Source: Candidatus Hecatella orcuttiae
GTDB lineage: Archaea > Thermoproteota > Bathyarchaeia > Hecatellales > Hecatellaceae
NCBI GenBank assembly: GCA_002011035.2
Contig: MTLY02000003.1
Location: 384,001 to 448,000, forward strand
Length of the DNA: 64,000 nucleotides
Direction: 5' to 3'
Shown: piece by piece, positions 15,920-31,794 of the stretch
How positions within the stretch are numbered: the stretch's first letter is position 1
Layout of the letters: each line of letters starts with the position of its first letter
The notes under the pieces: generated by a model
The model's database searches: none
What the model was told of the DNA's origin: nothing
The model's input: the letters and a program-made list of their open reading frames with translations, nothing else
Program-made: the position numbers and the translations under genes

Positions 15920-16012
15920 GCGGCCGTAGTCTAGCTTGGTTAGGACATCAGCCTGCCAACCTTGGGAGGCAGAACGCTGAGGACCCGGGTTCAAATCCCG
16001 GCGGCCGCACCA
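15920..16012 (+). tRNA. tRNA-Gly(GCC) with 16-nt intron at 37/38 (15959-15974), encoded CCA
   Basis: Acceptor GCGGCCG/CGGCCGC, anticodon GCC at 15955-15957, T-loop TTCAAAT; central helix CTGC/GCAG with 3-nt bulges CA^A and AA^C. Confidence 0.95.
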
Positions 16013-24033: not shown

Positions 24034-25440
24034 TCAAACTTTCGAGAGTTTCTCGAGGCGTTCTACACAATTAATTTTGATGCCGAGCAGTTCAGCGATC
24101 CTAACTTTAGCTTCGAGTCCTTTCGCTGCACCCGGTAAACCAGTTATAACACCGATGTCAAGTTTTTCCCTAAGCTTTCTCATAGTAAACTCATCACAAA
24201 GCTCTATTGAGGAGACACCTAGCTTTTTAGCGACGTAATCCTTCGCTTCAGGTAGTCTCATTTTCTTTTGCAACTGCATCCTACCAATCAGGTCGCCTGA
24301 TGTTCTGATGCTGCCTATGCCACCGGCTACCAGATGCCCAATGGGCATTCCAATGCAGTCTCCGACACCCACCTAAATGCCATCGACGCCGGCTATCTCG
24401 ATCATAGCTTTGTTCGCTCTAGTTACTGTATCCAACGGTGGTGTTTCTAACATGGGCACGCCGCCTACACCCATTCCCATGTTGGGGTGAACAGGGATAG
24501 TCGCTTCTCTCACGCATGCCTTGGTAAACGTAACCGCCCTGGAGAGATTCCATGGGAAAGTGAGGTGGGGTTTTGTATTTATCACAGGTCCAAATATGTC
24601 GACACCCGCTTTTTCCGCTACTTTAAGTTGTTGATGCGGCCACATTCCAGCCAAACGTTCTCCTGCATATTTCAATTCCGTGTGAAATCCGTGTACAGCC
24701 TCGGTAGCCATACCCATCTGGACAGCTAGGTCGGGGTACACCTTTTTCAATGACTCTGTAGCCGTAAGGGCTGCATAAAAGTCAGGATCTCCCGCCGCTC
24801 CTACTGTATCGATATTTATTCCATCCACGCCTACTCTTCTGAGATGTTTAGCTACATATATTATGGCATCATGACATTCTCGAGCAGCGCCCTCCATAGA
24901 TTTCCTCGCTTCGTCGTTCTTTCCTTCTCTGATCAGAGAGATCGGTTCAGGCCATTGACCATCAGGCTTATAGAAATAGCCTAAGTTGGGCATAGCCATG
25001 AATTCTAGAGGACTGATCGACGTGTGCAGAGTATTGTGGATAACATTCGCCAAATAGCTCACTATTACCTTTGCAGGCTTAAAGCTTCCATCCGATTCAG
25101 GAAATTGTAGTATATCAAGTCCAAGCACCCTTTCAGACAGCGCTCCTTGAGCAATGGAACGTTCAATCGGCATACCTAATCCACTAGTGCCAGAGTCAAT
25201 CCAGAAAGTCGAGCCTCCTGCATCAGCGGACAGGACGACCTCGCATCCATGTTTTACAGCCACAACCTTATTGGCGTCGATGATAATTTCATATAATGTT
25301 TCCAGATCTTCGCCGGTTAATTCGGGTATTTTCGCCCTTTCTGCAGCGTCTTTTGAACCCAATTCTAGGTCGTCTTTGATCTGTTTACCCGTCATGGTGA
25401 TCAGTCTACCATCGCCTCTTCTCGTCAAATGTTCTGGCAT
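24034..25440 (-). CDS. mtbB: Dimethylamine:corrinoid methyltransferase MtbB with in-frame amber (pyrrolysine) codon at 24373-24375
   Basis: Two abutting in-frame ORFs join as ...[22 protein letters not shown]...; TAG is codon 356 of a 468-aa product ending at TGA 24034; SD AGGAGGTGA upstream. Confidence 0.92.
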
Positions 25441-29274: not shown

Positions 29275-30450
29275 TTATATTTTTGACAACTCTTTTTCTC
29301 TCAGGATTAGTACGGCTCCAGTGAACTGGTTGTCTTGATTTTCGATGGGGGTAGTGTAAATGAACGTTCTCAGAGGGCTTCCTCCTTTCTTCAGGAACTC
29401 AAATTCATGAACTTCATCGAACCTATGTTTCCGCCTGTTTTTTATGCTATGGAGAATTTTTCCCCATCTCTGACTGCAGAACTCCTCAAGATTCTTGCCC
29501 ACCATCTCCTTTGATGTGTATCCGAGCATCTCAGCAGTCCTTGGGCTGACATATGTAGTGTTGAACTCTGCGTCTACAAGCCATAAGCCTGTCTCTCCTT
29601 TCATGGCTGACGTCCTCTTTGGGGGAAGTTTTGTTTTTAACAGGGTATCCACAAGTTTAAAGGGGTCCGCTGAGCTCCACATTTCCTCGAAGAATCTTTG
29701 GTATAGCCTTGTCCAACCTTTGCTGTTCAGCCATATATCTCTACAGCAAGAGTTCGATGGCCATCTTTCCATGTCTATTGCTATTCCGACAATGGTCCAT
29801 TTATCATCAATAATCATCGTGTGAAAGGGGATTCTGGAAATTTGTCTTAACTCTGCAAACTTATTGCAGATTTCAACCTCGCGGATGATTGTCTCGTCAA
29901 CCTCCGTAAGTATCCTCACCGGCATCCTGTGAGAGCATTTTCTTAATATGTCAACGAGACCATGATACTCCGCCAGATAAAGACCTGCCCCTGGCACCAT
30001 GTAGTCTATTTTGTTTTCCGCCGATTTACATAATGCGATCTTTTTACTATAGACTTGTTTCATTCCAGTCAAAATTTGTATGCCTTCTCTTTCTTCTCTC
30101 TCTTCTTCTTTCTCCTCACTTACTGCTTTCAGAGCGTCGACGAGCCTAGCTTTGTTAGATGCTATTCTGTTCACTCTTTCTCTTTCAGCCGCTAATAACC
30201 AATCTACAAGCATCTCAGGTTTAACGGCTTTAAATTTTTTAGGCCGTTCCAATAAAGACTGGATAAGTTCCCGTCCTTCAAGCTTCTTAAGTATGCGGTA
30301 GACTTCAGGCCGAGGGATTCCTGCCCGACGGGCTAACTGGTTTGCGGTTAGGTCTGAGCTATATTTTATTAGTGTAACCAGTACTTTAATGTCGTTTCCA
30401 GATAAGCCGAACTCGCTTAGGTTCTGTACAATTTCTTGTTCTTTACTCAA
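29275..30450 (-). CDS. TrmB-family regulator with C-terminal PAS domain
   Basis: LSEFGLS...GIPRPEVYRILKKLE HTH; PLD-like IIDDK effector domain; PAS-like GLWLVD..TTYVSPRTAEMLGY. Confidence 0.8.
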   Translation of the reverse strand: MSKEQEIVQNLSEFGLSGNDIKVLVTLIKYSSDLTANQLARRAGIPRPEVYRILKKLEGRELIQSLLERPKKFKAVKPEMLVDWLLAAERERVNRIASNKARLVDALKAVSEEKEEEREEREGIQILTGMKQVYSKKIALCKSAENKIDYMVPGAGLYLAEYHGLVDILRKCSHRMPVRILTEVDETIIREVEICNKFAELRQISRIPFHTMIIDDKWTIVGIAIDMERWPSNSCCRDIWLNSKGWTRLYQRFFEEMWSSADPFKLVDTLLKTKLPPKRTSAMKGETGLWLVDAEFNTTYVSPRTAEMLGYTSKEMVGKNLEEFCSQRWGKILHSIKNRRKHRFDEVHEFEFLKKGGSPLRTFIYTTPIENQDNQFTGAVLILREKELSKI

Positions 30451-31603: not shown

Positions 31604-31704
31604 TGGAGCCCCGGGCGGGGTTTGAACCCGCGACCTTAGCCTTACCAAGGCCACGCGCCACCAGGCTGCGCCTACCCGCCCTTGCTTCGTAAGGGAACCG
31701 GGGC
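31604..31704 (-). tRNA. tRNA-Thr(GGT) with non-canonical 24-nt intron at position 8/9 (31673-31696), encoded CCA
   Basis: After removing the intron: acceptor GCCCCGG/CCGGGGC, D-stem GCGC/GCGC, anticodon GGT (31644-31646), T-arm GCGGG-TTCAAAC-CCCGC, T73; BHB geometry at both junctions. Confidence 0.9.
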
Positions 31705-31794
31705 ATCTGCTCCGGGGCTTCAGGCTACGCTTTAAGTGTAGGATAAAATGAATATAAGAATTAAGTTCAACTCCCCAGGGGGATGGGTTCTCGG

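Follow-up and report, generated by a model that had tools for sequence, protein, structure and literature searches.

Archaeal tRNA introns are excised from a motif known as bulge-helix-bulge (BHB). At the canonical site, between positions 37 and 38, this is made up of an exon helix, a 4-base-pair helix, a bulge with two exon bases and one intron base, an intron hairpin, and a second bulge with two intron bases and one exon base, a topology identical to that reported here. The splicing endonuclease cuts after the second base of each bulge. Non-canonical introns described in Thermoproteales, Thaumarchaeota, and other archaea share with the present one the BHB with flanking helices (hBHBh'), the 3-nucleotide bulges, the 4-base-pair helix, and a short intron, as well as a setting of many interrupted tRNA genes and a two-paralog endonuclease (EndA) with a Crenarchaea-specific loop. 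The accessible part of a review text lists such introns at positions 3/4, 20/21, 22/23, 25/26, 29/30, 30/31, 45/46, 53/54, 56/57, and 59/60 (PMC4090602). Here we describe a pre-tRNA-Thr(GGT) gene (31604..31704, minus strand) in a 64,000-nucleotide stretch of the Candidatus Hecatella orcuttiae genome (contig MTLY02000003.1, positions 384,001 to 448,000; the window), in which a BHB intron interrupts the tRNA after base 8 and the leader carries a copy of the 5' acceptor strand. From the co-occurrence of copy and intron, the conservation pattern of the copy, folding energetics, and promoter spacing, we put at roughly 55% the probability that the copy is a decoy sequestering the 3' acceptor strand during splicing.

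Read on the minus strand from 31704 to 31604, the gene is GCCCCGGT / TCCCTTACGAAGCAAGGGCGGGTA / GGCGCAGCC...GGGGCTCCA. The 5' exon GCCCCGGT provides tRNA bases 1-8 (31697..31704, with G1 at 31704), and the 3' exon provides bases 9-76 (31604..31672), including G9 at 31672, the anticodon GGT at 31646-31644, the 3' acceptor strand CCGGGGC at 31614-31608, the discriminator T at 31607, and an encoded CCA at 31606-31604. The 24-nucleotide intron between them (31673..31696) consists of a bulge T (31696), CCCTT (31695-31691), the loop ACGAAGC (31690-31684), AAGGG (31683-31679), CGGG (31678-31675), and a bulge TA (31674-31673). Bases C3-G6 of the tRNA (31702-31699) pair with the intron CGGG to form the 4-base-pair central helix CCCG/CGGG, and two 3-nucleotide bulges flank it, one formed by G7, U8, and the first intron base (GU^U), the other by the last two intron bases and G9 (UA^G). 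The inner helix CCCUU/AAGGG has 5 base pairs; the outer helix, h1, is G1C2/G10C11 and has 2 base pairs, or 3 if a leader U·G pair is counted. An extension of h1 into the leader was also tried and set aside; it gains just this one pair. The locus therefore shows what defines an archaeal hBHBh' intron, namely a 4-base-pair helix, two 3-nucleotide bulges, flanking helices of at least 2 base pairs, and restoration of a standard tRNA. Local folding of the first 45 nucleotides recovered the helix-bulge-helix core; given competition between h1 and the D stem, the minimum free energy (MFE) motif is of the relaxed kind on the outer-helix side.

When the intron (31696-31673) was removed in silico, ARAGORN called a 77-nucleotide tRNA-Thr(ggt) whose acceptor stem has 7 base pairs and which has U8, D, anticodon, and T arms of normal form, and the encoded CCA; the unspliced DNA gave no call. 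An earlier note made from the letters of this DNA had proposed the intron after base 8 of tRNA-Thr(GGT), the C3-G6/CGGG helix, the two bulges, the inner and outer helices, and a clean cloverleaf upon cutting after the second bulge base, and each of these elements was borne out. A deletion scan shows that acceptance by ARAGORN is not enough to place the junction: of 1116 arbitrary deletions, 434 were accepted as well, and the scan thus does not discriminate. In a blind scan, strict hBHBh' motifs were sought around T-arm-like seeds (77 genome-wide) and ARAGORN was run on every spliced variant; a 24-nucleotide intron after base 8 was the sole single-intron solution at the locus. Intron-free orthologs from the same family read GCCCCGGT-G/A-GC, and the predicted junction, GCCCCGGU-GGCGC, is the junction of these orthologs. 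The junction is fixed at 8/9 because the bulge geometry and the intron-free orthologs agree. The anticodon loop is uninterrupted, which sets the intron apart from the canonical 37/38 class. Identical locus DNA, free of indels and joints, was present in a contig from a run not flagged as the source, and no intron-free variant was seen in contigs from four DNA runs. No second D/anticodon arm of tRNA-Thr(GGT) was found in the 97%-complete assembly.

The suspicion that scanners may mis-call such a gene was also correct. ARAGORN in default mode overlooked it and with the -i option invented a spurious 10-nucleotide intron at position 32, and the Rfam tRNA model gave only a partial match (model positions 9-63, 36 bits, 31615-31672). 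Because standard finders miss or mis-model this essential gene, tRNA-Thr(GGU) will be misreported as missing in annotations of the class.

The intron is conserved among relatives of the source organism. A DNA search of 60 relatives recovered the same insertion in nine other genomes, and the ten precursors were aligned (alignment A2, checked column by column) and used to build a covariance model, R1, with which 151 genomes drawn from the class (probably Bathyarchaeia) were searched. Matches over the whole model were obtained in 27 of the 151 genomes, at 78-129 bits, and the next matches scored at most 71 bits. Inspection of 20 lower-scoring matches added two genomes of family f25, in which the 8/9 intron is accompanied by further introns, giving a total of 29 genomes in 10 of 31 families. 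The carrier is tRNA-Thr(GGT) in 22 genomes and tRNA-Thr(CGT) in 7, and some relatives have an additional 37/38 intron in the same gene. Across the 27-gene alignment, in which intron length ranges from 15 to 26 nucleotides, pairing in the central helix reaches 99%; two of its four pairs show double changes from C-G to U-A, and the inner helix has double changes at four of five pairs. This alignment was fitted to R1, which favours structure; the hand-checked 10-row alignment agrees. Such conservation with compensatory changes makes the motif more than a chance arrangement. The tRNA-Thr architecture was not found in 131 genomes from other classes of the phylum sample, and one 69-bit match outside the class had a canonical intron only. 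Family f16 (L104-L107, L109, and L111) carries the 8/9 intron in tRNA-Thr(CGT), and the tRNA-Thr(GGT) of the same genomes has D-loop and canonical introns; judged by these gene comparisons, the intron has either moved between isoacceptors or been differentially lost.

The predicted enzyme set fits non-canonical splicing, with an EndA of the broad-specificity type and an RtcB ligase. Two EndA paralogs are encoded (C2:15570-16124 and C2:374733-375302), 184 and 189 amino acids long and each with both domains. The first most resembles catalytic subunits from A. pernix, S. tokodaii, and P. aerophilum; no gap interrupts its alignment over the Crenarchaea-specific loop, and Lys-Pro-Lys stands at the positions of K44-P-R46. 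In the part of the source available, this loop and Lys44 are reported to confer EndA cleavage at non-standard positions (PMC3241643). The closest named EndA relative, at 72% identity, comes from a metagenome-assembled genome of Candidatus Hecatellales, class Bathyarchaeia. An RtcB gene is present, and RNase P RNA gave two full-length archaeal matches, of 189 bits (C3:4813-5114, plus strand) and 178 bits (C2:470380-470771, plus strand). Two RNase P RNAs in a 1.75-Mb genome could reflect a true duplicate or bin contamination, which is estimated at 4.25%. On the strength of the motif, its conservation, and this enzyme set, the single functional tRNA-Thr(GGU) gene very probably contains an archaeal BHB intron at 8/9 that is spliced by EndA and RtcB, with the leader removed by RNase P.

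The position itself had been described in the earlier note as apparently lying outside the known non-canonical sites. That statement holds within the accessible text of the 2014 review (PMC4090602), from which 8/9 is absent. A literature search on archaeal tRNA introns between positions 8 and 9 returned modification papers only, and a 2026 preprint with an Asgard intron census refers, in its available part, to a small number of insertions in 'acceptor stem and junctions' without detail.

We regard a second feature, overlooked in the earlier note, as more interesting than the position of the intron. The leader contains a copy of the 5' acceptor strand, GCCCCGG (31712..31718, minus strand), which is separated from G1 by the 7-nucleotide spacer AGCAGAT (31711-31705). 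An upstream strand beginning with G-Y-Y-Y-Y that is able to pair with GGGGC of the 3' acceptor strand was found in 28 of 28 assessable intron-bearing genes (the 29th is cut by a contig end), 3-20 nucleotides before G1, with one copy at 20 nucleotides. Among 18 Thr genes lacking the 8/9 intron, taken as the best matches of other relatives and including tRNA-Thr(GGT) genes of the same family, none had a Watson-Crick copy of at least 5 bases. A criterion that tolerates G·U pairs does not discriminate, because U-rich 5-mers occur in several of these controls. The sharpest control comes from the intron-carrying genomes themselves, where a copy is missing from all 14 Thr isoacceptor genes that lack the 8/9 intron, and these genes have the same acceptor stem or nearly so (GCCCCGA in the tRNA-Thr(CGT) of the source genome). 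Full-text literature searches found no paper on an acceptor-strand leader copy or decoy.

The sequence pattern of the copy is constrained where pairing with the 3' strand would require it. Copy positions 1-5 pair with GGGGC in all 27 rows of the alignment, and the sole substitutions there are C to U, compatible with G·U pairing (9 cells in 27 rows); the spacer between copy and tRNA is not conserved, and families f3, f14, and f18 show divergence at copy positions 6-7. In three lineages the true strand has become GCCTCGG with a compensating A in the intron and the copy stays GCCCCGG; in G003 the true strand is GCCCTGG with a compensating intron change and the copy is GCTCCGG; and in f25, with the stem GCCTCGG/CCGAGGC, the copy is GCCTCGG. 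Judged from these patterns, the copy tracks the acceptor stem and not the intron.

The identity of the two copies over 7 bases in the source genome, together with the many alternative deletions that ARAGORN accepts, might suggest that the genuine 5' exon is the upstream copy, with an intron about 38 nucleotides long that includes the second copy, or that a chance insertion has hit a pseudogene in decay. We consider both very improbable. The copy lacks bases 6-7 in 9 of the 28 assessable genes, so that no 7-base-pair stem could form with it, and in the source genome splicing from the copy would yield A8 instead of U8; when the upstream copy was tried as exon 1 or as a part of the BHB, no motif fitted. 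A pseudogene is at odds with a sole tRNA-Thr(GGT) gene whose exons and BHB are conserved with compensatory changes.

A different origin for the copy has to be weighed against a decoy role, namely that the intron is spliced and the copy is a by-product of its origin without any folding role, either the ancestral 5' end left behind by the insertion or a target duplication. This is the main rival, and we consider it unlikely, though less so than the other alternatives. The decay of copy positions 6-7 in f3, f14, and f18 would suit a remnant, and if intron and copy arose in one shared event, their co-occurrence among related genomes overstates the case for a function. A mere remnant would not be expected to persist in 10 families next to a fully diverged spacer, to change at positions 2-5 exclusively by G·U-compatible C to U substitutions, or to track the altered acceptor stem in f25, and its absence from 14 of 14 paired isoacceptor controls and from same-family Thr(GGT) genes without the 8/9 intron is likewise unfavourable to it. 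A relic of the ancestral 5' end and a decoy can be compatible, with the relic having been co-opted.

The decoy reading starts from a conflict of folds. The 7-base-pair acceptor stem would out-compete the 4-base-pair BHB helix, because the BHB borrows the 5' acceptor strand. When folding was predicted from G1 onward, the acceptor stem formed instead, leaving the BHB central helix a probability of 0.00 in each of 10 genes; starting at the copy, this probability was 0.04-0.97. The median cost of forcing the central helix (n = 26) was 7.4 kcal/mol without a leader, 3.6 kcal/mol with shuffled leaders, and 0.6 kcal/mol with the native leader; the native-leader cost was lower than the leaderless cost in 24 of the 26 genes and at most 1 kcal/mol in 15. 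For the tRNA-Thr gene studied here, the leader reduced the folding cost from 6.0 to 0.0 kcal/mol, and the MFE structure of a transcript beginning at the copy contains a 7-base-pair helix between copy and 3' strand, the central helix, both bulges, the intron hairpin, and the D, anticodon, and T arms.

In the mechanism that we propose, the leader GCCCCGG, which probably forms the 5' end of the primary transcript or lies close to it, would pair as a decoy with the 3' strand CCGGGGC and so leave the true 5' strand available for the BHB. C3-G6 of the precursor would then pair with the intron CGGG between the two 3-nucleotide bulges, EndA of the crenarchaeal two-paralog type would cut after the second base of each bulge, and RtcB would ligate U8 to G9. 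After splicing, the true strand would replace the decoy, and RNase P would take off the leader and thereby discard the decoy, so that splicing should precede 5' maturation.

Such a scheme places the transcription start at or upstream of the copy. The usual spacing of the B recognition element (BRE) and TATA box before an archaeal start site matches the A+T peaks that appear when 26 loci are aligned on the first G of the copy, at -36..-33 (0.85-0.96) and -29..-25 (0.81-0.88). Families f16, f21, f22, f14, and f28 show, as read by eye, a single clear box 21-25 nucleotides before the copy, and in paired genes of the same genomes without the 8/9 intron the box stands at that distance from G1. In the window, an A+T-rich putative promoter region (31730..31757, minus strand) contains the candidates ttatatt (31757-31751), ttttat (31748-31743), and cttaaag (31736-31730), picked out by eye. 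A scan for bacterial promoters and terminators, a method unsuited to archaea, found nothing. The spacing bears on two of the alternatives. The copy sits at the normal first-base distance from the promoter, as an ancestral 5' end would, which speaks for the by-product explanation. Its place at or near the predicted start site could also mean that it serves some other function, as a promoter-proximal or initiator element in DNA, as a signal for RNase P or other processing, or as a brake on premature aminoacylation or CCA handling, and in two f16 genes the copy brings no predicted folding gain. We find such other functions improbable. A site read in DNA or by a protein would not be expected to tolerate only pairing-preserving changes, and the copy is found only with introns that use the acceptor strand.

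Acceptor-strand copies also recur elsewhere in the source genome. Six of its 43 tRNA genes have their own 5' acceptor strand copied within 40 nucleotides upstream, where 0.42 would be expected from genome-wide frequencies, and the six copied strands all differ in sequence. A census based on removal of strict BHBs resolved 21 tRNA genes of this genome, and three of the six genes with copies have strict BHB introns that use acceptor bases, at 7/8, at 8/9 (the tRNA-Thr gene), and at 9/10. The 7/8 intron belongs to tRNA-Met(CAT) at C2:476912 (C2:476897-477050, plus strand), with the leader copy AGCGGGG and a folding cost that falls from 6.9 to 0.5 kcal/mol with the leader; the 9/10 intron is in the tRNA at C3:675973 (C3:675958-676126, plus strand), with the leader GGGCCUG for GGGCCCG and a cost falling from 11.7 to 4.8 kcal/mol. 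In two further genes, C2:30412 (C2 ~30270-30412, minus strand) and C3:346649 (C3:346649-346830, plus strand), the upstream copy is exact and an insertion lies directly after the second copy, and no strict BHB could be drawn. The sixth, tRNA-Asn at C1:224747 (C1 ~224590-224747, minus strand), has an 8-nucleotide copy 35 nucleotides upstream, and no strict BHB could be drawn near it. In another family, tRNA-Met(CAT) of G080 (L110, G080:C1:449570-449806) has the tandem GGGCCCG-A-GGGCCCGTA and a 23-nucleotide BHB intron at 9/10; this gene, with its tandem GGGCCCG-A-GGGCCCGUA, surfaced through the Thr-based covariance model. Recurrence of the arrangement with five other acceptor sequences in the source genome is difficult to reconcile with a by-product, and one would not expect a site recognised in DNA or by a protein to be identical, in all six sequences, to the acceptor strand of the tRNA concerned. 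At the tRNA-Thr locus, a copy of the gene's own 5' strand within about 25 nucleotides of G1 is combined with an intron whose BHB uses that strand, which is our provisional definition of a decoy leader. Whether leader copies are a selected, general RNA-folding device that enables introns at positions ~4 to 10 whose motif borrows the acceptor strand is, in our judgement, an even call.

Several observations weigh against the decoy reading. Splicing, transcription start, and pre-tRNA structure are all deduced from DNA. Helix h1, of only 2-3 base pairs, shows no variation and is in competition with the D stem. Because 27 of the 29 genes have the same 3' acceptor strand, covariation between copy and 3' strand comes from f25 alone, and the match in f25 is also explicable by recent duplication or gene conversion. 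The genomes are related and do not count as independent cases, and intron and copy may go back to a single joint origin. The tRNA-Thr(GGT) of G036 (L115 / L059, family f9), which has no 8/9 intron, carries GCTCTGG at -23; as RNA (GCUCUGG), this strand could bind the 3' acceptor strand with the help of two G·U pairs, and it may have been left over from an 8/9 intron since lost. The tRNA-Asn gene of the source genome has its upstream copy without any 5'-proximal intron, which is what a by-product might leave. Shuffled C-rich leaders give about half of the folding effect. Of the six genes of family f16, L084 and L087 gain nothing from the leader, and L076 and L077 gain only in part, with a BHB cost that stays at 3.0-4.9 kcal/mol. 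A BHB cost of 3.9-6.4 kcal/mol also persists in L079 and L083. Four of the f16 genes (L076, L077, L080, and L084) have a spacer whose last bases are UUCC or UUCU, and the exceptions in this family are attributed to a predicted pairing of spacer UUCC with intron GGAA (the end of the central helix and bulge 2) that would compete with the BHB. Finally, the tRNA-Thr gene studied here has the TATA-like cttaaag about 25 nucleotides before G1, and if this is the promoter, the start falls after the copy; G001 and G003 of the same family have a likewise ambiguous promoter.

If the decoy reading is true, pre-tRNA leaders in these archaea would be functional folding elements and not mere spacers, and the order of processing, splicing and then RNase P, would be hard-wired in the sequence. 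Maturation of the tRNA would include a built-in strand-exchange step not described in print. Gain of an intron at the 5' end of a tRNA would need a second, coupled change, and the device would explain how introns have colonised and persisted at tRNA 5' ends. Archaeal introns are thought to be tolerated wherever a BHB forms, and a BHB in the acceptor stem poses a folding conflict undiscussed in the literature examined. In practical terms, a simple covariance model was sufficient to recover the tRNA-Thr architecture in 27 of 151 genomes.

The tRNA-Thr gene lies in a 351-nucleotide gap between two open reading frames, with a 976-amino-acid reading frame upstream on the same strand. Elsewhere in the window, a tRNA-Gly(GCC) at 15920-16012 (plus strand) with a 16-nucleotide insertion beside the anticodon is the sole tRNA that ARAGORN reports by default, and a match to Rfam PYLIS_2, the pyrrolysine insertion element of mtbB, was found at 24276-24375 (minus strand, 44.5 bits). 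ARAGORN also called a tRNA-Pyl in the source genome (G000:C1:349861-349931), and UAG is probably read as pyrrolysine in methylamine methyltransferases of this organism.

Compared with the known systems, the tRNA-Thr intron differs from the canonical 37/38 intron in that its exon helix is G1C2/G10C11, of 2-3 base pairs, and not the 5-base-pair anticodon stem, and in that the motif, for as long as it is present, is incompatible with folding of the remaining cloverleaf. Unlike the listed non-canonical introns, it lies at 8/9, the junction of the acceptor and D arms, a position absent from the accessible text list of PMC4090602. Its central helix is built from acceptor bases 3-6, which makes the splice motif and the acceptor stem mutually exclusive, and a conserved leader copy of the acceptor strand accompanies it. 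According to the available parts of the sources (PMC4090602, PMC4033280, PMC3218864), split tRNAs of Nanoarchaeum equitans and permuted tRNAs of Cyanidioschyzon merolae and Thermofilum pendens require extra-tRNA sequence, later discarded, for the splicing fold, a dependence that is proposed here for the leader. The exons of the tRNA-Thr gene are contiguous and collinear within 101 nucleotides and would be spliced in cis, which distinguishes it from split and permuted genes. As those partial accounts describe them, the extra sequences of split and permuted tRNAs themselves form the BHB, whereas the leader here is proposed to bind the competing 3' strand.

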